A stretch of 64,000 nt of DNA from Chitinophagaceae bacterium. GTDB taxonomy: Bacteria; Bacteroidota; Bacteroidia; Chitinophagales; JADJOU01. Position 1 is the stretch's first letter. Each line of letters begins with the position of its first letter. The position numbers and the translations under genes are program-made. The notes beneath the pieces were generated by a model, which was given only the letters and a program-made list of their open reading frames with translations, made no database searches and had not been told where the DNA came from. The stretch spans positions 73,481-137,480 of the forward strand of contig JAFEIJ010000015.1 in the NCBI GenBank assembly GCA_017495115.1, given 5' to 3'. This document shows positions 4,167 to 30,204 of the stretch, piece by piece.

Positions 4167-5135
4167 ATGTTTCGAATTATTCTTCTTATTATATTAAACC
4201 TAACGTTTGTTCTTCTAAATTTATTATTTAAAGATGGTATAAATATAATGCAAATCTATCAAAATGAAACCAATACCTTTGGATCTATTTTAGAACTGCG
4301 ATCTTTATCTATTCTTCTTGCTATTGGAGCGGGTGCGGGTTTATCGCTTGTTGGATTGTTTCTACAAACTATTTTCTCGAATCCTCTAGCTTCGCCATTT
4401 ACACTTGGCATATCTCCTATTGTATCTTTAATTGTGAGTATTTTTTTAATTTTCATTCCAACCTTAGGTTATTTTTCGATTTATTGGTTATATTTAGTTC
4501 AATTTTTAGTTTCGATGATTGCCGCATTAGGTCTACTTTTTTGGATTCAAAAAATCAATAAAAATAATGGTAATGCAACATTTATAATTTTAATTGGTGT
4601 TTTATTGGGTTCATTTTCAGGCGCGATTCAACAAATTATTGAGTTTAACCTAAGCGCCGATTTATTAAAACAAAATGCTTTATGGAATTTAGGGAATTTT
4701 CAAGCTTTTGCGCTTTGGATTCCAATTGCCGTTTTGTTTATCATCATTATTTGTTCCATATTTTTAAAAAAAATGACATATCAAGCCAATATTTTTTTAC
4801 TAGGAATACAATATGCTCGAAATTTAGGATTGGATACAAATCAATTTATAAAAATTATTATTTTTATTTCTTCAATAATTACTTCTGTTATTACAATTAC
4901 ATGCGGACCTATTGGATTTATTGGACTAATGGCACCTCATATATCTAAAATTTGGCTCAAATCTAATAATCATAAAGTTGTTTTTCTGCCTACTTTATTA
5001 ATTGGAATTTTCTTTTGCCTTTTTGCTTTATGGACAAGTCAACTTGAATTTTGGAATGGCTCTTTATCAATAAATATTGTTTTGAGCATTATTGGCGTGC
5101 CATTCACACTTTTTTTACTTTTAAAAAGAAATTAA
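4167..5135 (+). CDS. FecCD/BtuC-family ABC transporter permease (iron-chelate/cobalamin type)
   Basis: The 322-aa protein is polytopic, with the FecCD-like segments GAGLSLVGLFLQTIFSNPLASPFTLGIS and GPIGFIGLMAPHI. Confidence 0.7.
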   Translation: MFRIILLIILNLTFVLLNLLFKDGINIMQIYQNETNTFGSILELRSLSILLAIGAGAGLSLVGLFLQTIFSNPLASPFTLGISPIVSLIVSIFLIFIPTLGYFSIYWLYLVQFLVSMIAALGLLFWIQKINKNNGNATFIILIGVLLGSFSGAIQQIIEFNLSADLLKQNALWNLGNFQAFALWIPIAVLFIIIICSIFLKKMTYQANIFLLGIQYARNLGLDTNQFIKIIIFISSIITSVITITCGPIGFIGLMAPHISKIWLKSNNHKVVFLPTLLIGIFFCLFALWTSQLEFWNGSLSINIVLSIIGVPFTLFLLLKRN

Positions 5136-5147
5136 AAGGAAAGTAAA

Positions 5148-6182
5148 ATGACGGAACCATTTATTTTTGTTGATTTTGATTCGTTTGAAATTTCAAAAAA
5201 TGATTTTCAGGATTCCTATTATGATCAAGTTTTAGATTTTATTATTTCTTTGAAAAATGAAAACTGGACCTTACAAGTTAAATCTTCGGGAAGTACTGGA
5301 ACACCAAAAGTTTTTAATTTTACAAAAGAACAAGCCATCACAAGCGCAAAAATTTCCAATTCTTTTTTTGGAATTAATAAAAACTCAACATTATTACTTC
5401 CTCTTTCTATTGAATTTATCGCTGCAAAAATGCTTCTCATTCGAGCATTTGAAGCCAAATGTAAAATTTACATTCAAAAACCAAATACAAATCCAATCAA
5501 AGATTTACTTAAAAAAATTGATTTTATTTCATTATCGCCTTATCAAGTTCAAAATATTTTAGAACAAAACCCTGAAAAATTTAATTTAATTAAAAAGTGT
5601 TTGATTGGTGGCGCCGCATTGCATCCAAAGTGGATAGAAAAACTAAAAGAACTCAATTCAAATTGTCTATTTTACGAAAGTTTTGGAATGACGGAAACAC
5701 TCAGTCATTTTGCAATAAAAGAATTATTAACGGATCATTTAGGTTTTAAAAAATTATCAGAATATCAAATAGCAACCAATTTAGAGCAACAATTAATCAT
5801 TTCGCATCCAATTATCGTTCCAAATCCATTAACTACAAATGACATCGTTGAAATTATAGATTCAGAGGATTTTAATTTTATTGGGCGAAAAGATTTTACA
5901 GTAAATAGTGGTGGCATTAAAATCCAAATTGAACCTTTAGAAAAGGAGATGGAAAAATTCATTAATTTTCCTTTTTTTCTTTCAAAAAAAAATAATGAAA
6001 AATTTGGAGAAATATTGGTGTTTTGTTTTCTAAAAAATGAAAACATTTTGGATGAACAAATTTTTGAGTTGTTCAAATCAATTCCAATTACAAAATATCA
6101 AATCCCTAGAGAAGTGATTCGCTTAGAAACTTTTAAACATACGGAAAACGGAAAAATTATTCGTAAGTTAGACCAATATTAA
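5148..6182 (+). CDS. short adenylate-forming (AMP-binding) enzyme, MenE/o-succinylbenzoate-CoA ligase-like
   Basis: It carries the SSGSTGTPK AMP-binding signature, the ESFGMTET motif and a C-terminal GKIIRK. Confidence 0.6.
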   Translation: MTEPFIFVDFDSFEISKNDFQDSYYDQVLDFIISLKNENWTLQVKSSGSTGTPKVFNFTKEQAITSAKISNSFFGINKNSTLLLPLSIEFIAAKMLLIRAFEAKCKIYIQKPNTNPIKDLLKKIDFISLSPYQVQNILEQNPEKFNLIKKCLIGGAALHPKWIEKLKELNSNCLFYESFGMTETLSHFAIKELLTDHLGFKKLSEYQIATNLEQQLIISHPIIVPNPLTTNDIVEIIDSEDFNFIGRKDFTVNSGGIKIQIEPLEKEMEKFINFPFFLSKKNNEKFGEILVFCFLKNENILDEQIFELFKSIPITKYQIPREVIRLETFKHTENGKIIRKLDQY

Positions 6183-6189
6183 AGTCAAA

Positions 6190-6711
6190 TTATTCTTTTA
6201 CATGAAGAATTCGCTGTAATTCTTTGGCTTCCGAGATTTTAATTCGACCCGCCAAAAACAATCGCATTTCTCTTCGTTGTTGCGCCAACTCAAAATCATT
6301 TTTCTCCTCATCAGTTTCTGCTAATATGGGTGCAATATTTTTAGGTTTTCCGTTACTATCCAAAGCTACAAATGTATAAAACGCACTATTACACTTATAT
6401 TTATTTTTTGTTGGTAAATTTTCGGCCCAAACTTCAATTTTGACTTCCATCGAAGTACTAAAAGCGCGTGTTACTTTTGACGCTATTTGCACGACATCAC
6501 CCATTTTAATAGGATTTTCAAAAGAAACTTGATCTACAGATACCGTAACAACGACTGCTTCGGCGTGTCTTCCTGCACTGATTGCAGAACAGATATCCAT
6601 CCAATGTAATATTTTGCCTCCTCTTAAATTATGAATCGCATTCGTATCATTTGGCAATACCATTTCCATCATATTTGCATATGATTCACTCGCTTTTTTA
6701 GGTTGTAACAT
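6190..6711 (-). CDS. acyl-CoA thioesterase (hotdog fold, YciA/BFIT-like)
   Basis: MMEMVLPNDTNAIHNLRGGKILHWMD...VVTVSVDQVSFENPIKMGD is typical of hotdog acyl-CoA thioester hydrolases. Confidence 0.8.
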   Translation of the reverse strand: MLQPKKASESYANMMEMVLPNDTNAIHNLRGGKILHWMDICSAISAGRHAEAVVVTVSVDQVSFENPIKMGDVVQIASKVTRAFSTSMEVKIEVWAENLPTKNKYKCNSAFYTFVALDSNGKPKNIAPILAETDEEKNDFELAQQRREMRLFLAGRIKISEAKELQRILHVKE

Positions 6712-7321
6712 TGTTTTTTTTATTTAAAAAATGAAGAAATAAATACATTGAAAAAGTCGCCCAAAATACACCAATCAAACTACCAACCAAAACATCTTCT
6801 TTAAAATGAGCCAAAAGATATATCCGAGCCACACCTACCAATATTGCGGATAGTATAAGGATTAACATATACCTCTTTTTAGGATTTAAAAATAAAGCAA
6901 TTGTAGTTAAAATAAAAAATGCCGTTGTCGTATGGCCCGAAGGAAAACTTTGATGATATAATAAAGGAATATTCTCGGGCATTTGAAAATCATAATTTTT
7001 GAAATACGATAATGGACGAGGGAAGTTAAAATATTTTTTGAGCAATCTGACAGTTAACATTTGACCTAAAAATCCTATTAAAAAAAAACACAATTGAAAT
7101 CTATGTTTTAAAAGAAGATAAACTCCTATAATCATAACTAAAAACCATTCGCCTAAGATATTAAATACTTTAAACAAAACATCAAAAAAGGGAGTTTGTA
7201 GCTTATTTAATAAAATAACTTCATCGCCTTTATTTATATAAAACATACTGATTGAAGCTAAAATAACAAATAATAAATAAACCAAAAAGTAAAATTTGAT
7301 TGCATTAAAATTCTTGATCAT
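6698..7321 (-). CDS. PAP2-family phosphatase (membrane)
   Basis: All three PAP2 motifs are present: KKYFNFPRP (K-x6-RP), FPSGHTT (PSGH) and ARIYLLAHFKED (R-x5-H-x3-D). Confidence 0.85.
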   Translation of the reverse strand: MIKNFNAIKFYFLVYLLFVILASISMFYINKGDEVILLNKLQTPFFDVLFKVFNILGEWFLVMIIGVYLLLKHRFQLCFFLIGFLGQMLTVRLLKKYFNFPRPLSYFKNYDFQMPENIPLLYHQSFPSGHTTTAFFILTTIALFLNPKKRYMLILILSAILVGVARIYLLAHFKEDVLVGSLIGVFWATFSMYLFLHFLNKKNNVTT

Positions 7322-8766
7322 TTCCTTTTTTTAAATTTATTTTTTAACTTGACAAAATACATTTGATAGGAATCAAAATCCAATAAAGCGCTGTCATTTT
7401 TAGCTTTTATTGTGAGGTAAAAACCAAATAATCCAAAAACTACCGTCGGAATCCACATGCCTATCCAAGGCAATAAGGCTTCATTTTCACAAATCTTTTT
7501 TATCGAAATATTAGACATTAAATAAATAATAAACAAGACTACTGAAATCAACATTGGCCAACCCAATCCGCCTTTTTTGATAATAGCGCCCAAAGGAGCT
7601 CCAACAAAAAATAAAACCAAACAAGACAACGCAAAGGTGTATTTAAAATGCCATTCGACTTTGAATAAATTTTGTAAAGAACGATTATAAGTTATTTCTG
7701 AAACGGCTACATAAATATTATTTTTAATATTCCTAGCTTTGTTTGTTGCAATAACTCGAAATTGTTTAATTTGATCCGGACTCAATTTTTTCAAACTATC
7801 TTTCAAATTGACTTTCCCCAAATTATTTTTTGAAACTAGGGCTTGATTAATTTGTAAAGATTGCAATTGAATCGACATTTCTTTATTCTTTTTGGCAATA
7901 AATGACTCAAAGGTATCGATTTCTTTATTTAGCTCATTGGCAGTAAGCATAAATCTTCGATCTTCCGAAGATTTACCAAATTTATCATTGAGCTTAAATT
8001 GCGTAAGGTCAAATCGTTTTTCATAGCTTTTAAATTTCACTTTATAAAATGGAAACTTAGGATTATCTGAACTATTTGAAGCCTCTTCGGTATATCGAAC
8101 ACCAGAATCCAAGCGCATTATCAATACTTTTCCATCTTCCGACTGTTTAAATGTTCCTTTTTGAGCCATCAAAATGTTTTCATTTCCTTTACCTTCTTGA
8201 TGATTATATATTTTTAAATTAAATAAATCGCCCGTTTTTTCATTTTTTTCTTCAATCCGAATACTAACTCCAGCAATTCCATTATAAAATGTTTTGGGTT
8301 TGATTAACAACGCAGGTTTTAAATTCCTTACATCTTGAAGCATACTATCCGCAACATTTTTAACTTCTGTGAGAACAAAATTTGCAAAATAAAATGCAAA
8401 AATGGAAAGAAAGAAACTAAAGAAAATCAAGCTTTTGAAAAAACGAAACAACGAAATACCAGAAGCTTTGGCAGCCGAAAGCTCAAAGTGTTCACCAAAT
8501 CGACCCATCGTCATGATACTACTTAATAAAACTGCAATAGGCAGAGCCATTGGTATTAGCGTTAATGCCATATAGTAAATCAACTTAAGAATAATCATTG
8601 TACTTAAGCCTTTACCAATCATATCATCGATATATTTCCAAAGAAATTGCATTATAACCACAAACCATGCAATTAGAAATGTAGCCAAAAAAGGCCCAAT
8701 GTATGATTTTAAAACATACCAATCTATTTTCTTAAACTTAAAAAAATCGATAAATCGATACTTCAT
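7318..8766 (-). CDS. LptF/LptG-family (YjgP/YjgQ) permease
   Basis: The 482-aa protein has the N-terminal ILKSYIGPF-type start, three TM helices, a large periplasmic insert, then three more TM helices. It overlaps the next gene by 4 nt. Confidence 0.75.
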   Translation of the reverse strand: MKYRFIDFFKFKKIDWYVLKSYIGPFLATFLIAWFVVIMQFLWKYIDDMIGKGLSTMIILKLIYYMALTLIPMALPIAVLLSSIMTMGRFGEHFELSAAKASGISLFRFFKSLIFFSFFLSIFAFYFANFVLTEVKNVADSMLQDVRNLKPALLIKPKTFYNGIAGVSIRIEEKNEKTGDLFNLKIYNHQEGKGNENILMAQKGTFKQSEDGKVLIMRLDSGVRYTEEASNSSDNPKFPFYKVKFKSYEKRFDLTQFKLNDKFGKSSEDRRFMLTANELNKEIDTFESFIAKKNKEMSIQLQSLQINQALVSKNNLGKVNLKDSLKKLSPDQIKQFRVIATNKARNIKNNIYVAVSEITYNRSLQNLFKVEWHFKYTFALSCLVLFFVGAPLGAIIKKGGLGWPMLISVVLFIIYLMSNISIKKICENEALLPWIGMWIPTVVFGLFGFYLTIKAKNDSALLDFDSYQMYFVKLKNKFKKRK

Positions 8767-8777
8767 TTAAAAATATA

Positions 8778-11630
8778 TTAATGCATCATACGAAACATAG
8801 GATTCTGCTCATCTCGATCTCCTCCAGACTTAAATTTCTTAAAATTGTATGTAGCCGTTAGCATAAAATAACGATTTAAAGCGTTGATTCTTGTGTCCGT
8901 AATCATATTTTCATTCACATTTCTCGAAATATTTCTATTTTGGTCAAATAAGTCAAATACAGCAAATTTAATTTCTAAATCTCGCTTTTTAAGCATTTTG
9001 TAAGCCACACTAGATCCTAATAAAAATACATGCTGATTAAGATTCGGATCAATTTGACTATTATAGTTATATGAAAAATCTGAATTAAAAACAAAATGTT
9101 TTAAAAATGTAATTTTTAAATTTGATGTTAATGAATGAATCCAGAAATTATTTTCTAAGTTTTTAAATTGAGAATACGTATTGATGATATATTTAGGATT
9201 ATAGCCTAAAGAAAAATCTACATCTTCGCTTATATTACTAGATAACATCGCTCCATTGCTCAACGTCCAATTATTTGTGATATTCTCTATATTATTAACT
9301 AAAGTTGGTGAACGATTATAATTTACATTAGCATTAAAACTTAAATTTGACTTAATCGATTTGATTGGTGTCGTATAATTTCCAAAAACCATACCATTAA
9401 AATTGCCATCTAAATTGACAATCGTATTATACTGCACTCCTTTTCGGATTAATAAATTCGCAATTGTTGTATCGTTGAGCGCTGTAAAATTTGACGAGGC
9501 ATTTTTGTTTTGTGTATAATTCATATTAGACATAAAAAACAAAAAGGTTCCTTTGGCCAAATTAGGTTTGATAAATTGGAAAAACAAATTATGATTATAT
9601 TCTGCTTTTAAATTTGGATTTCCTCTAAAAATCGACTGTGGATTACTGATATCTGTAAGTGGCTGAATATTTGAAGCCGAAGGGGTATTCATAGATGTCG
9701 TATAATTCAAACGAATTTTAAACATTTTTTGAGGTTGAAATTGAATGTTAAAATAAGGTAATATTCCAAAAAAATCCTGAGAAATTGCGGAAGTATTATA
9801 AACATTATTTTGTGCACTAAAGTTTATGTTTTGAACATTCGTTCCAAACATAAAACGCCATTTGGAAAACTGTAAACGATAACTAACCCCTCCTATATTA
9901 TAAAAAATGGGATTTTGTAAAATATTACTTAAGTTGCTATCTATGTCACCAGGTGTTCCAAAAACTTCGGAATAGGTGTTAATCACTTCATTTCTTTTGT
10001 ATGCAATTGAAGGACTGTATGTTAAAAGCCATTGCCCAAACTTACCGCTCGGTTCGGTGTAACTAAAAATAGCGCTTACCGTATTACTCCATTGGGTTGA
10101 GTTATTATTAAGCTCAAATTGAGAAATACCCATTGCGGTGGTACTATTATTTTGTTGAATTGAAGTTCCATTTTGTCTTGTAATATCAAAAATTGGGTTA
10201 AATGAAAATGTTCTTCCCGCTTTTTTCAATTTTAATCGATATAAGAAATTGGTACTAAAACTTACGTTTTGAGAGGTATTATCCGAAGTTTGATTATTTT
10301 CAAAAGCTCTTGAATTATTTTGAAACGTATTGACAATTTTAGAATTTGAATAACTATTACTTTCACTTAAATTTAATGCATTGGTCCAAACGATTGAATT
10401 ATTTGCATCCAAATAGGTTTCCATTCTACTATTAAAACGGGTATTAAAAAGTGTTTGCTTTCGATCGGTATTTCCATTTGTAAATAACGTATTTCCTTCA
10501 TTTACAAAATTTCTACTGTTCATTATTTCATTATAAACATTATCGGTTCTGTTTGTAAAAATACTTGAAGACAATCTCGTATTTCTATTTTTACCCCATC
10601 GATCCACATAATTAGCTCCAAAAGAATACGCACTATTAACCCCATCTTGATTACTCACCGTAAAATTAGAGAAACCGCCTCCTCCTCTATTTCCTCCAGC
10701 AACTCGCATTCCAAAACCCATATTTCGCATCATCGAACGACCTTGCATGCCACCCATTCCGCTGCTTCCCGAAACGGCTCCGATAATTTCAGACGTTGAA
10801 AAATTTAAATTATTAATATTATTGGCTAATCCTAAAATCGAAATCCTTTTATCTCCATCAAAATAATTCATATTTCCACCACCTTGAAATGTAGATTCTG
10901 TACCTCCTCCACCATAAACCTTACCAAAATATCCATGTTTCATGCCGGCTTTAGTTTTAAGATTAATCGTCTTAGTCGTATTACCATCATTAAAACCTGT
11001 AAAACTAGCTCGATCGCTTTGTCCGTCAAAAACTTCAACTTTATCAATCGTTTCTGCAGGTAAGTTTCTTAATGCTACATTAACATCATCTCCAAAAAAC
11101 TCTTGACCATCAACCGTAATTTTTCGTACTTCCTCACCTTGAGCTTTTAAAGTCCCGCCTTCGGTTGTAATACCTGGCATTTTTTTCACCAAATCTTCAA
11201 CATTTGCATCTTTATGTGTTTTAAATGCTTTTGCATCATAAATAATAGTATCATCTTTTATTGTAGCTCGAGCTCGAGTCCCTTCTATTTCAACTTCTTT
11301 AATTTTTGTTTGTGTATTTACAAGTTTTACATTTAGCAAACTAGGTATATTTGAAACACTAATTTTTCTTTCAAAATTAGCATAGCCCATCATCTGAACT
11401 TTAAAATAAAAATCTTTTTTTGGATTAACCGAAATTTGATATTTTCCTTCAAAATCTGAAAAAGCCGTTTGAAACGCTTGATTTTCATCCGTATAAACCA
11501 ATGCAATTACAGCGCGTCCTACTGGACTATTTTTTTTTGAATCGGTTACTTTACCTGCAATTTTTTGTTGCGCAAAAATGGATACGCTTGAAATTAGAAC
11601 TAAAAAAAGTGTTGAAACGAATTGATTCAT
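8778..11630 (-). CDS. outer-membrane beta-barrel protein with an N-terminal carboxypeptidase-regulatory-like domain (TonB-dependent-receptor-like)
   Basis: It has a signal peptide, a CarboxypepD_reg-like start (IAGKVTDSKKNSPVGRAVIAL), a plug-like segment, a long beta-strand-rich body and a terminal aromatic beta-barrel end (TATYNFKKF). Confidence 0.7.
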   Translation of the reverse strand: MNQFVSTLFLVLISSVSIFAQQKIAGKVTDSKKNSPVGRAVIALVYTDENQAFQTAFSDFEGKYQISVNPKKDFYFKVQMMGYANFERKISVSNIPSLLNVKLVNTQTKIKEVEIEGTRARATIKDDTIIYDAKAFKTHKDANVEDLVKKMPGITTEGGTLKAQGEEVRKITVDGQEFFGDDVNVALRNLPAETIDKVEVFDGQSDRASFTGFNDGNTTKTINLKTKAGMKHGYFGKVYGGGGTESTFQGGGNMNYFDGDKRISILGLANNINNLNFSTSEIIGAVSGSSGMGGMQGRSMMRNMGFGMRVAGGNRGGGGFSNFTVSNQDGVNSAYSFGANYVDRWGKNRNTRLSSSIFTNRTDNVYNEIMNSRNFVNEGNTLFTNGNTDRKQTLFNTRFNSRMETYLDANNSIVWTNALNLSESNSYSNSKIVNTFQNNSRAFENNQTSDNTSQNVSFSTNFLYRLKLKKAGRTFSFNPIFDITRQNGTSIQQNNSTTAMGISQFELNNNSTQWSNTVSAIFSYTEPSGKFGQWLLTYSPSIAYKRNEVINTYSEVFGTPGDIDSNLSNILQNPIFYNIGGVSYRLQFSKWRFMFGTNVQNINFSAQNNVYNTSAISQDFFGILPYFNIQFQPQKMFKIRLNYTTSMNTPSASNIQPLTDISNPQSIFRGNPNLKAEYNHNLFFQFIKPNLAKGTFLFFMSNMNYTQNKNASSNFTALNDTTIANLLIRKGVQYNTIVNLDGNFNGMVFGNYTTPIKSIKSNLSFNANVNYNRSPTLVNNIENITNNWTLSNGAMLSSNISEDVDFSLGYNPKYIINTYSQFKNLENNFWIHSLTSNLKITFLKHFVFNSDFSYNYNSQIDPNLNQHVFLLGSSVAYKMLKKRDLEIKFAVFDLFDQNRNISRNVNENMITDTRINALNRYFMLTATYNFKKFKSGGDRDEQNPMFRMMH

Positions 11631-28356: not shown

Positions 28357-28420
28357 TCACAAATGTTATAAAATTATGAGCATATTATCAAAAAGATTGG
28401 GTCTCATTGTTTCTAATTTT

Positions 28421-28482
28421 GAGACCACGGATAAATTTTTCAAAGTGAACTAGCTATTCAGGAAAAATTTTCCGAGGTGACG
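28421..28482 (+). repeat. hairpin module A1
   Basis: GAGACCA CGGATAAATTTTTC [loop AAAGTGAACTAGCTATTCA] GGAAAAATTTTCCG AGGTGACG. The stem is 13 bp with one bulged T. Confidence 0.85.
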
Positions 28483-28566
28483 ACATATGTGAATTCCAAC
28501 TCTTCGTACCCGTTCCCGAATTCCCGAATCGTGCCTCTCTGGACAGTCGCAGGATCTCGGGATAGG

Positions 28567-28643
28567 CGTCATCCTCGAAAATTTTCAGCAACAATATTTT
28601 TATTAATATACTAAATCTTTTTTGAAAATTTATCGGGGATCTC
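28567..28643 (-). repeat. hairpin module D1 (A-type design in reverse orientation)
   Basis: CGTCATCCTCGAAAATTTTCA ...loop... TGAAAATTTATCGGGGATCTC. Compare the reverse complement of A: CGTCACCTCGGAAAATTTTTCC...GAAAAATTTATCCGTGGTCTC. Confidence 0.8.
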
Positions 28644-28660
28644 ATTGTTTCGCTTCAGAG

Positions 28661-28718
28661 ATTCCGCATATTTTTTTTATAAGCTGACTAGATAGTCAAA
28701 AAAAATTGCGGAATGACG
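28661..28718 (+). repeat. hairpin module B1
   Basis: ATTCCGCATATTTTTTTT [loop ATAAGCTGACTAGATAGTC] AAAAAAAATTGCGGAAT GACG. Confidence 0.85.
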
Positions 28719-28791
28719 AAGTGGTTATAAGCAATCCTTTCAAATCACTAATAACTAAAACCTAAAGTCTAATCCCTTTTAAAAGCTTTTT

Positions 28792-28853
28792 GAGACCACG
28801 GATAAATTTTTCAAAGTGGACTAGCTATTCAGGAAAAATTTTCCGAGGTGACG
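28792..28853 (+). repeat. hairpin module A2
   Basis: Same as A1 with one loop change (AAAGTGGACTAGC). Confidence 0.85.
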
Positions 28854-28906
28854 GGAGTCCCGAGATGAAGGATTCGGGAACGTAATATATGTGAATTCCA
28901 ATATCA

Positions 28907-28981
28907 CGTCATCCTCGAAAATTTTCAGCAACTAAATGTTTTTTCTCTTGAAATTATAATTGAAAATTTATCGGGGATCTC
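28907..28981 (-). repeat. hairpin module D2
   Basis: CGTCATCCTCGAAAATTTTCAGCAAC...TTGAAAATTTATCGGGGATCTC. It ends 10 nt from the GIY-YIG stop codon. Confidence 0.8.
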
Positions 28982-28991
28982 TTTAGAAAAT

Positions 28992-29291
28992 TTATAAATC
29001 TACAACTTGATTTATTAAATCAATCCAATCTTTGTTATATTTTTCTACAAGTTGCATCTTCCATTCACGTTTCCATTTTTTAAGTTGTTTCTCTCTTGAA
29101 ATAGCTTCTTCGATACTTATAAATGATTCAAAATAAACTAATTTATTACAATTATATTTTGAAGTAAATGAAGTAGGATATATTTTATCTTTATGTTCCA
29201 TAACTCTAAAATATAGTTGACTTGTAACTCCAATATAAAAAACGGAATTTAATTTATTTGTCATTATATAAACATAGCCCCCACGCTCCAT
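28992..29291 (-). CDS. stand-alone GIY-YIG (URI-domain) nuclease family protein, COG2827/YhbQ-like
   Basis: The 99-aa protein reads MERGGYVYIMTN...VFYIGVTSQLYFRVMEHK...SFTSKYNCNKLVYFE...EEAISREKQLKKW. This gives the GIY and YIG motifs, a conserved Arg and a conserved Glu. Confidence 0.9.
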   Translation of the reverse strand: MERGGYVYIMTNKLNSVFYIGVTSQLYFRVMEHKDKIYPTSFTSKYNCNKLVYFESFISIEEAISREKQLKKWKREWKMQLVEKYNKDWIDLINQVVDL

Positions 29292-29295
29292 TGTA

Positions 29296-29303
29296 CAAAT
29301 ATA
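29296..29303 (-). promoter_or_regulatory. candidate -7 box (TATATTTG) only 4 nt upstream of the GIY-YIG ATG
   Basis: The reverse complement of 29296-29303 is TATATTTG. If functional, it implies a leaderless or near-leaderless mRNA. Confidence 0.3.
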
Positions 29304-29313
29304 CTAATTATAT

Positions 29314-29375
29314 GAGACCACGGATAAATTTTTCAAAGTGAACTAACTATTCAGGAAAAATTTTCCGAGGCGACG
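29314..29375 (+). repeat. hairpin module A3
   Basis: GAGACCACGGATAAATTTTTCAAAGTGAACTAACTATTCAGGAAAAATTTTCCGAGGCGACG. It starts 22 nt from the GIY-YIG start codon. Confidence 0.85.
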
Positions 29376-29399
29376 GGAGATGGTGTCAGCACTTTAGAG

Positions 29400-29455
29400 A
29401 TTCCGCATATTTTTTTGTAAGCGTACTAGATTGTCAAAAAAAATGCGGAATGACG
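29400..29455 (+). repeat. hairpin module B (unit 3)
   Basis: ATTCCGCATATTTTTTT [GTAAGCGTACTAGATTGTC] AAAAAAAATGCGGAAT GACG. Confidence 0.85.
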
Positions 29456-29542
29456 AGGTGGTTATAACCAAGCCCTTCAAATCACTAATCACAAGTCACT
29501 AATCACTAAAACCTAAAGCCTAATCCCTTTTAAAAGCTTTTT

Positions 29543-29604
29543 GAGACCACGGATAAATTTTTCAAAGTGAACTAACTATTCAAGAAAAATTTTCCGAGGT
29601 GACG
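29543..29604 (+). repeat. hairpin module A4
   Basis: Same design as A1. The loop ends ...CTATTCAA. Confidence 0.85.
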
Positions 29605-29628
29605 GGAGATGGTGTCAGCACTTTAGAG

Positions 29629-29681
29629 ATTCCGCATATTTTTTAATAAGCAGACTAAATGGTCAAAAAAAATTGCGGAAT
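29629..29681 (+). repeat. hairpin module B (unit 4)
   Basis: ATTCCGCATATTTTTT [AATAAGCAGACTAAATGGTC] AAAAAAAATTGCGGAAT. Confidence 0.85.
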
Positions 29682-29798
29682 GCTTTAAGTCCCGAGACGA
29701 AGGATTCGGGAACGCAACGATTATGAATCCCTTCAAATCACTAATCACAGGTCACTAATCACTAAAACCTAAAGCCTAATCCCTTTTAAAAGCTTTTT

Positions 29799-29860
29799 GA
29801 GACCACGGATAAATTTTTCAAAGTGAACTAACTATTCAAGAAAAATTTTCCGAGGTGACG
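29799..29860 (+). repeat. hairpin module A5
   Basis: Identical to A4. Confidence 0.85.
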
Positions 29861-29884
29861 GGAGATGGTGTCAGCACTTTAGAG

Positions 29885-29937
29885 ATTCCGCATATTTTTT
29901 AATAAGCAGACTAAATGGTCAAAAAAAATTGCGGAAT
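29885..29937 (+). repeat. hairpin module B (unit 5)
   Basis: Identical to the unit-4 copy. Confidence 0.85.
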
Positions 29938-30054
29938 GCTTTAAGTCCCGAGACGAAGGATTCGGGAACGCAACGATTATGAATCCCTTCAAATCACTAA
30001 TCACAGATCACTAATCACTAAAACCCAATCCCTAATCCCTTTTAAAAGTTTTTT

Positions 30055-30113
30055 GAGACCACGGATAAATTTTTCAAAGTGCACTAACTAATCAAGAAAA
30101 ATTTTCCGAGGTG
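30055..30113 (+). repeat. hairpin module A6 (terminal, slightly diverged)
   Basis: GAGACCACGGATAAATTTTTCAAAGTGCACTAACTAATCAAGAAAAATTTTCCGAGGTGA. Confidence 0.8.
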
Positions 30114-30175
30114 AAGAGGCGTCTTAAAATATTCATTACCTTAAAAAAAATGTCCTATTTTGATCGATTTAGTTC

Positions 30176-30183
30176 TATATTTG
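30176..30183 (+). promoter_or_regulatory. candidate -7 box (TAnnTTTG)
   Basis: TATATTTG lies 21 nt upstream of the ATG at 30205. The extended context TATATTTGCTTT matches the one upstream of the protease gene at 22500. Confidence 0.4.
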
Positions 30184-30204
30184 CTTTTAATAAATTGCTA
30201 AAAC

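Follow-up and report, generated by a model that had tools for sequence, protein, structure and literature searches.

A window of 64 kb (the whole stretch of DNA analysed here, 64,000 nucleotides from a Chitinophagaceae bacterium) contains a 469-bp unit in which a small GIY-YIG nuclease gene lies between two inverted copies of one hairpin. The question raised by this locus is whether nuclease and hairpins belong together and, if so, what kind of system they form. An earlier note on this DNA proposed that the nuclease recognises or propagates the hairpins and was aware of no described system of this kind. We are fairly confident that the locus is a member of the Ssn system, in which an ssn gene is flanked by its cognate hairpin repeats, the Ssn-related motifs (SRMs), themselves a branch of the CGTC-tagged repetitive extragenic palindrome (REP) super-family. 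The gene and its two hairpins, each of which carries at one end an unpaired CGTC that we call the tag, are arranged as follows.

28992-29291, minus strand: ssn-like gene encoding a 99-residue single-domain GIY-YIG nuclease (open reading frame (ORF); Pfam PF01541).
29314-29375, minus strand: hairpin A3, upstream of the gene; the gene sense strand reads CGTCGCCTCGGAAAATTTTT-loop-AAAAATTTATCCGTGGTCTC, with the tag directed away from the gene.
28907-28981, plus strand: hairpin D2, downstream of the gene; the plus strand reads CGTCATCCTCGAAAATTTT-loop-AAAATTTATCGGGGATCTC, with the tag directed away from the gene.

The gene, the only GIY-YIG gene in the window, has its stop codon 10 nt from D2 and its ATG 22 nt from A3. 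In a Pfam search of the 99-residue protein, the GIY-YIG domain (PF01541) spans residues 5-79 with an E-value of 1.1e-15 and no second domain is found; the protein is thus single-domain and falls below the 150 residues that bound the Ssn family. An exact sequence look-up found no record of it. D2 and A3 are of one hairpin design in inverted orientation, and the 469-bp unit ends in CGTCATCCTCGAAAATTTT on the left and, reverse-complemented, CGTCGCCTCGGAAAATTTT on the right, sequences that are some 70-80% alike. The coordinates of the ORF and of the two hairpins, the 10-nt and 22-nt distances, the termini and the position of a promoter-like box (29303-29296) in the earlier note all proved exact.

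Systems of this kind have in fact been described. Chenal et al. (Nat Commun 2025, PMC11893778) reported on SsnA, a 94-residue single-domain GIY-YIG protein that binds and cleaves the Neisseria repeat NTS (CGTCATTCCCGCGMAVGCGGGAATCYRG). SsnA acts on single-stranded DNA (ssDNA) only and on one strand only, and its cut falls a few nucleotides 5' of the repeat; cleavage is sensitive to the three bases that precede the palindrome and binding to the C that follows it, and the characterised family members leave duplex DNA uncut (PMC11893778). Homologues (CDD cd10448) across phyla are flanked by related hairpins, the SRMs: 71% of the homologues have one within 500 bp and 42% have them on both sides. 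SsnA reduces natural transformation by NTS-bearing DNA (PMC11893778). The same authors liken the NTS-ssnA-NTS layout to an insertion sequence and to the pairing of REPs with REP-associated tyrosine transposases (RAYTs), an analogy that the earlier note had also drawn, aptly. The CGTC-tagged REPs were described earlier by Di Nocera, De Gregorio and Rocco (BMC Genomics 2013, PMC3733652) as repeats with an unpaired CGTC and an A-T stem start, often arranged as inverted dimers and known from alpha-Proteobacteria, Neisseria (dRS3), Rickettsia, Bacteroidetes and others; in the words of these authors they 'apparently lack a dedicated transposase' (PMC3733652).

The hairpins of the window are of three types, A, B and D, built on a common plan: an unpaired CGTC tag, a GC-rich proximal stem starting A-T, a distal stem rich in AT, a single extrahelical base and, directly behind the palindrome, a C. 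Type A reads CGTC-ACCTCGG-AAAATTTTT-loop-AAAAATTT-A-TCCGTGGT-C-TC, type B reads CGTC-ATTCCGCA-TTTTTTTT-loop-AAAAAAAT-ATGCGGAAT-C-TC, and type D reads CGTC-ATCCTCG-AAAATTTT-loop-AAAATTT-A-TCGGGGAT-C-TC. The stems of B and D start AT...AT and that of A starts AC...GT. Read in the orientation of NTS, the window hairpins run CGTC-A[T/C]-stem...stem-C-TC, retaining the GTC in front of the palindrome and the C behind it; A3 (CGTC-GCCTCGG...CCGTGGT-C-TC) and D2 (CGTC-ATCCTCG...CGGGGAT-C-TC) present these functional determinants on both sides of the gene with their tags outward. The tag is CGTC in nine of the 12 window copies, AAGC in B3 and B4, and CTTC in A6. The hairpins are 58-77 nt long, with stems of about 16-19 bp plus the extrahelical base and loops of 20-40 nt.

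On either strand, D2 and A3 fold as ssDNA better than shuffled sequence (z -2.9 to -3.4), and type B reaches z -6.4. Pairing was examined further in 17 distinct long hairpins of types A and D, taken from the window and 11 other contigs and compared over a 16-bp stem: 97.1% of the cells are paired, and four pairs show compensatory changes, in 15 cells. This level of pairing was reached by none of 500 shuffles, and sliding the partner columns lowers it to 26-69%. A T-T mismatch in the proximal stem (A3 alignment columns 8 and 73), seen in the window A hairpins and in loci L003, L100, L180 and L213, is kept in 8 of the 17 and replaced by C-G or T-A in the others. The extrahelical base led us to consider attC-like integron sites, which were rejected for want of the R/L box consensus and of an integrase nearby. 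No Rfam family was found on the hairpins in the window (E-values up to 1) or at 12 homologue loci, which makes a described structured RNA unlikely; a tRNA scan gave nothing near the region and no PADLOC defence-system model was matched.

The gene and the hairpins belong together well beyond this window. The protein family comprises 2,826 relatives at E <= 0.001, many of them on contigs of at most 1 kb, as would be expected next to repeated DNA. In 80 further homologue loci from species-representative genomes, most of the Bacteroidota have flanking hairpins with differing stems and identical tags, for example cgtcaccctgaatttatttcagggtct and agatgctgaaataaattcagcatgacg in Pedobacter and gagattgcgggtcaagcccgcaatgacg in a Flavobacteriales metagenome-assembled genome, and flanking hairpins of the same design surround homologues in other phyla too. 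A generic free-flank hairpin finder proved too noisy in AT-rich DNA and was replaced by a test for the tag, CGTCA[CT]/[AG]TGACG, within 120 nt of a gene, with the other genes of the same loci as controls. By this test the tag lies near the gene at 45 of 79 homologue loci (57%), compared with 53 of 321 control genes (16.5%), and it lies on both sides at 24 of 79 (30%) compared with 3 of 321 (0.9%; odds ratio 46, p 9e-16). The two-sided excess, anticipated in the earlier note as an enrichment of hairpins at both gene ends, shows that the link of gene and hairpin is not due to chance. Counted over all tags, orientation with respect to the gene shows only a weak bias, since the hairpins come as inverted dimers. 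With an anchored hairpin finder, GACG was the most hairpin-associated 4-mer, though only about 3-fold over the median.

The similarity of the protein points to the Ssn family in particular. Over its full length it is 47% (E 5e-32) and 54% (E 4e-35) identical to two proteobacterial homologues, at loci L086 and L081. The genes of these two lie between copies of GTCATTCCCGCG[C/A]AAGCGGGAATCC, a sequence that matches the Neisseria NTS except at the first base and the 3' tail. Residues Y8, Y19, R29, E62 and E67 are invariant in 32 homologues, and, judging from their spacing, Y8, Y19 and a glutamate would correspond to Y6, Y17 and E64 of SsnA, the tyrosines of the GIY and YIG motifs and the glutamate that binds metal. 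The earlier note had placed the protein in the YhbQ/SLX1 lineage. That assignment is imprecise, since the similarity to UPF0213/YhbQ is remote: phmmer gives E 0.12 for PDB 1ZG2 and 0.75 for 1YWL, a profile search gives 6e-5, and clear membership does not follow.

Several points weigh against assigning the locus to the Ssn system. Its authors define members by a BLASTP E-value below 1e-10 to Neisseria meningitidis SsnA and a top CDD hit to cd10448 (GIY-YIG_unchar_3), whereas our placement runs indirectly, through L086, L081 and the hairpins. They also expect the published SRM pattern, HGTCWYN(0-2)YYVSBRHN(0-5)WNVSBRGN(0-2)RNCYNB, to match at least once within 500 bp on both sides. This pattern has no match in the whole window, on either side of the gene, because it disallows long stems and loops; it matches within 500 bp at only 10 of 82 homologue loci (among L003-L093) and on both sides at 5. 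At 58-77 nt the window hairpins lie outside the 20-50 nt described, so recognition may differ. The protein itself is known from its sequence alone, and the one biological role shown for the family, a lowering of natural transformation in Neisseria, need not hold in this organism.

If the protein behaves like the enzymes of Neisseria and Wolbachia, it would bind the hairpin only in ssDNA form, for example at replication forks or in incoming conjugative or transforming DNA, and would recognise it by the unpaired CGTC tag, by the sequence of the stem and by the C following the palindrome. It would then cut the tag strand a few nucleotides 5' of the tag and spare duplex DNA, RNA and the complementary strand. 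Given that A3 and D2 retain all three determinants with their tags outward, cuts are predicted just outside the unit: for A3 on the minus strand just right of 29375, at roughly 29376-29382, and for D2 on the plus strand just left of 28907. The likely role would be recombination control or the restriction of hairpin-bearing ssDNA, and the spread of the repeats is a further possibility.

D2 and A3 are part of a larger array, whose other members are the following.

28357-30204, no strand assigned: whole hairpin array (1.85 kb), between an S8-peptidase/CHU_C gene and a YfhO-like gene.
28421-28482, minus strand: hairpin A1.
28567-28718, no strand assigned: tags-outward pair without a gene, formed by D1 (28567-28643, plus strand), a 14-nt spacer and B1 (28658-28718, tag on the minus strand).
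28792-28853, minus strand: hairpin A2.
29397-29455, minus strand: hairpin B2, with proximal stem ATTCCGC/GCGGAAT, near the Neisseria NTS stem ATTCCCGC/GCGGGAAT (PMC11893778).
29543-29604, minus strand: hairpin A4.
29626-29681, minus strand: hairpin B3, with AAGC in place of the CGTC tag.
29799-29860, minus strand: hairpin A5.
29882-29937, minus strand: hairpin B4, its tag lost as in B3 (AAGC).
30055-30116, minus strand: hairpin A6, with tag CTTC; the 87% orthologous locus L214 has an A-type hairpin at the corresponding position.

All 12 genuine hairpins of the window (A1-A6, B1-B4, D1 and D2) are confined to 28421-30116, in one intergenic region, and the 27-nt and 21-nt arm patterns each occur in six exact or near-exact copies against 0.00-0.01 expected. 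Because cleavage is sensitive to the three bases ahead of the palindrome (PMC11893778) and the tags of B3, B4 and A6 are altered, the published mutagenesis predicts that these hairpins should be bound yet poorly cut, B3 being 'bound but not cut'. D1, the 14-nt spacer and B1 together are the 'empty' counterpart of D2-gene-A3. The earlier note had looked elsewhere for gene-less relatives, taking the A...D pairs at 28421-28643 and 28792-28981 for non-autonomous derivatives; in these the CGTC tags point inward and in the gene-bearing unit outward, so they are not simple deletion derivatives of that unit. Within the window the hairpins are clustered, not dispersed. A metagenome scan with an 18-nt degenerate arm pattern gave mostly chance matches, with genuine hairpins in about 12 of 120, and the long form (...CCGGAAAATTTT...AAAATTTATCCGG...) occurs in about a dozen metagenome contigs, nearly all of them gene-less; in L190 it stands beside visibly GC-rich flanking sequence. 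The gene-less copies are typically tags-outward pairs with spacers of about 12-100 nt (12-29 nt in four of six), as in L099, L117, L182 and L201.

The array has further internal structure. Positions 29470-29725 and 29726-29981 are tandem 256-bp units, 99% identical, each comprising one A and one B hairpin together with a small stem-loop; the array grows by tandem duplication besides any insertion process. Stubs of the form ATGACGA(A/G)GTGGTTATAA follow hairpins B1 and B2 at 28713-28730 and 29450-29467. In L004 the ATG within the ...GGGATGACG end of the hairpin is the start codon of the nuclease (ATGACGCGAGGTGGCTATAT, encoding MTRGGYI), and on the strength of this overlap the window stubs look like 5'-end relics of a deleted second ssn gene of the MTRGG type. 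A stem-loop TCCCGA-N10-TCGGGA lies at 28858-28879, 29690-29711 and 29946-29967, and inverted at 28521-28544. It accompanies long hairpins in several unrelated contigs (also L001, L003, L180, L209 and L213), set in (A)CGTTCCCGA...TCGGGAC, and possibly represents a fourth member of the family, one with a degenerate tag. AT-rich motifs, AATCACTAATCAC...CCTAATCCC...TTTT, precede the tail side of A hairpins at 28735-28791 and 29474-29542 and recur in L003 (2440-2500), L209 and L213; as they are shared across organisms, the conserved repeat unit may exceed the hairpin itself.

Upstream of the gene lies one further feature.

29296-29303, minus strand: Bacteroidota-type -7 box TATATTTG, 4 nt before the ATG.

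The consensus of such boxes is TAnnTTTG. The same spacing is seen in L003 (TATTTTTG-TGTA-ATG) and in L218, and among 82 homologue loci scanned, TAnnTTT[GA] boxes were found within 80 nt upstream of the gene in 14 cases, nine of them 3-4 nt from the ATG. The leaderless transcript suggested by the earlier note gains some support from these nine loci and from L218, and a leaderless or near-leaderless ssn mRNA is plausible from the position of the box.

How the array came to its present site can be followed through orthologues of its right-hand neighbour, a YfhO-like protein of 798 residues. In L215 (81%; positions 1-240) and L217 (70%; 9860-10040) the S8/CHU_C and YfhO-like genes are separated by about 100 nt that are hairpin-free, and in L216 (79%; 6620-7840) another ORF stands between them and the array is absent. 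The contig of L214 (87%; 1-160) begins inside an A-type hairpin at the A6 position. L215, L217 and L216 are empty sites, from which the whole array is missing, and its absence from orthologous loci indicates that array and gene are an insertion or expansion in the window lineage. The metagenome contig L001 (1-537), from a near-identical strain and encoding a 99% identical protein, was compared with window positions 28483-29340: its downstream D hairpin is joined to the D1-A1 type of spacer of the window, and the difference of some 340-370 bp is consistent with recombination between repeat units or with strain variation.

The hairpin-gene-hairpin module is found in three unrelated contexts. Besides the window, these are L002/L003, where a homologue 79% identical adjoins an FG-GAP/ASPIC gene, and L218, where a homologue 82% identical adjoins an ATPase gene; in both an A-type hairpin lies upstream of the gene and a D-type hairpin downstream (in L218 by inspection). 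When the window is aligned with L003, the homology runs exactly from the upstream CGTC tag to the downstream GACG, with no similarity beyond. In Flavobacteriaceae there are in addition hints of insertion. In L045 (Flavobacterium; 4904-5396) a hairpin-ssn-hairpin insert of 397 nt lies between perfect 48-nt direct duplicates of unique host sequence, which include the first 35 nt of an E2 (dihydrolipoamide) acyltransferase gene, and L036 (Winogradskyella; 4859-5382; 98 nt, 93% identical) and L046 (4897-5375; 53 nt) are likewise duplicated at the E2 gene. Such a duplication resembles the footprint of an insertion, or a duplicated attachment site, at a single favoured target. Exact direct repeats of at least 14 nt within 260 nt on each side of the gene are present at 34 of 76 loci, compared with 9 of 495 random controls; most of them reflect hairpin dimers to the left and right of the gene and so, except at the E2 gene, do not testify to target duplication. 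Transposon-like mobility is suggested only indirectly and is unproven, and of the proposal that the nuclease recognises or propagates the hairpins, it is the pairing of the two that stands, on the association above and on the biochemistry of homologues (PMC11893778).

Could Ssn be the mobilising enzyme of the CGTC-tagged REPs, with the tag-bounded module moving as a unit and seeding hairpin arrays at new loci? The idea is compatible with the end of the window-L003 homology at the tags, the three contexts, the clean empty sites and the 48-nt duplication in L045; we consider it rather doubtful. Were it true, the long hairpins of the Bacteroidota variant, with their extrahelical base, would make up a recognition class of their own.

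A stronger version, which is compatible with membership of the Ssn system, holds that the 469-bp unit is an active autonomous mobile element whose nuclease excises and re-inserts the module and mobilises the gene-less pairs in trans; on this view it would supply the 'transposase' that CGTC-tagged REPs had seemed to lack. To its credit are the insertion-sequence-like architecture, the tag-bounded homology in three contexts, the absence of the whole array from orthologous loci, the host duplications around the insert at one host gene in L045, L036 and L046, and the many homologues on contigs of at most 1 kb, as expected of repeated DNA. An autonomous transposon with terminal inverted repeats, as the earlier note had it, is nevertheless hard to reconcile with the window, where the unit is surrounded by no target-site duplication and encodes no strand-transfer enzyme. 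GIY-YIG nucleases cut DNA and are not known to join it, and we know of no strand-transfer chemistry for these enzymes. The hairpins are inverted, and hence the predicted cuts fall on opposite strands, unlike those of IS200/IS605. The wider distribution also tells against frequent movement: homologue P0007 sits at one fixed site in all 10 places listed, of 23 contigs; at least four Flavobacteriaceae loci look syntenic, which argues for vertical inheritance; the gene is near only one of the roughly 12 genuine metagenome hairpin loci; and recent identical copies were not seen. On balance we judge an active autonomous element unlikely.

Much the same empty pairs could be read as targets of a homing-type selfish gene, whose nuclease would cut gene-less pairs and leave repair to copy the gene from an occupied pair by way of hairpin homology. 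The gene-less tags-outward pairs, including that at 28567-28718 in the window, do share the geometry of occupied sites; the E2-gene site holds an insert in two genera, and each of them has duplicates particular to its own genome (perfect in L045, 93% identical in L036); and PHROG gives weak matches to homing endonucleases (E 2.6e-5). The window protein, however, is without a DNA-binding domain and scores 17.2 bits with the intron-endonuclease model TIGR01453, against a cut-off of 56, characterised members of its family spare duplex DNA, so that a double-strand break is not expected, and most hairpin pairs are empty. Homing therefore appears very improbable. That ordinary intergenic repeats or terminators merely adjoin an unrelated YhbQ-like housekeeping nuclease, as might be supposed from the Flavobacteriaceae homologues flanked only by short GC-rich stem-loops (possible terminators) and from the 43% of homologue loci with no tag within 120 nt, is strongly disfavoured and scarcely credible in the face of the two-sided association (odds ratio 46), the conservation of oriented tags while stems covary, the lack of a T-run after the hairpins of the window, the remoteness of UPF0213/YhbQ and the published biochemistry for homologues (PMC11893778).

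With the Ssn system already published in 2025, its recognition at this locus opens no new category. It extends the family into uncultured low-GC Bacteroidota with hairpins longer than the published pattern allows, and surveys based on the SRM pattern probably undercount the system in Bacteroidota, since that pattern finds 10 of 82 loci and the CGTCAY tag test 45 of 79. The empty sites, the tag-bounded modules and the case of insertion with duplication bear on whether Ssn spreads the repeats, a question left open by both earlier studies (PMC11893778, PMC3733652). New pairs of hairpin and enzyme are also of practical interest, Ssn enzymes being under development as site-specific ssDNA cutters.

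Set beside known systems, the locus most resembles Ssn with its NTS and SRM repeats. Common to both are a single-domain GIY-YIG protein of about 95-100 residues, a gene bracketed by inverted repeats with tags outward, the CGTC tag, the AT stem start and the C after the palindrome, and intergenic arrays that are mostly gene-less elsewhere; the window B stem, ATTCCGC/GCGGAAT, is almost the NTS stem. The differences lie in the hairpins, which measure 58-77 nt compared with 28 nt for NTS and 20-50 nt for SRMs and are marked by an AT-rich distal stem, a single conserved extrahelical base and loops of 20-40 nt, in the presence of three hairpin subtypes in one array beside a single gene, and in the host, a low-GC (31%) uncultured member of the Bacteroidota, a group absent from the main text of PMC11893778. 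With the CGTC-tagged REPs the window repeats share the terminal unpaired CGTC, the A-T first stem pairs, a short tail, frequent inverted dimers, occurrence in Bacteroidetes and the lack of a tyrosine transposase nearby. The described REPs, however, have 8-9-bp stems and 4-5-nt loops, compared with about 16-19 bp, a bulge and 20-40-nt loops here, and no dedicated enzyme was given for them in PMC3733652, whereas a GIY-YIG gene is associated with the repeats here and in PMC11893778.

REPs, and the bacterial interspersed mosaic elements (BIMEs) that they form, together with the RAYT (TnpA-REP), resemble the locus in outline, with a small nuclease gene between inverted copies of an intergenic hairpin repeat and recognition of a hairpin plus short tag on ssDNA; the window protein is a GIY-YIG nuclease and not an HUH/Y1 transposase of the IS200/IS605-related kind, and its tag is CGTC, not GTAG, which places it outside that group. 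The UPF0213/YhbQ-YazA proteins (1ZG2, 1YWL) are alike in fold, size and single domain; in CDD they form what we take to be entry cd10456, separate from the Ssn entry cd10448. Homing GIY-YIG enzymes of the I-TevI type differ from the 99-residue window protein in having a linker and a DNA-binding domain, in keeping with its low score against TIGR01453. The imperfect inverted ends of the 469-bp unit recall an insertion sequence or a miniature inverted-repeat transposable element, whereas its flanks, ...AATATCA|CGTC and GACG|GGAGATG, share no duplication and no known transposase domain is encoded. The system itself is already described, as Ssn/SRM and as CGTC-tagged REPs, and the locus is a new Bacteroidota example of it; new here are a long hairpin variant missed by the published pattern, defined empty sites and the hints of insertion with target duplication in Flavobacteriaceae.

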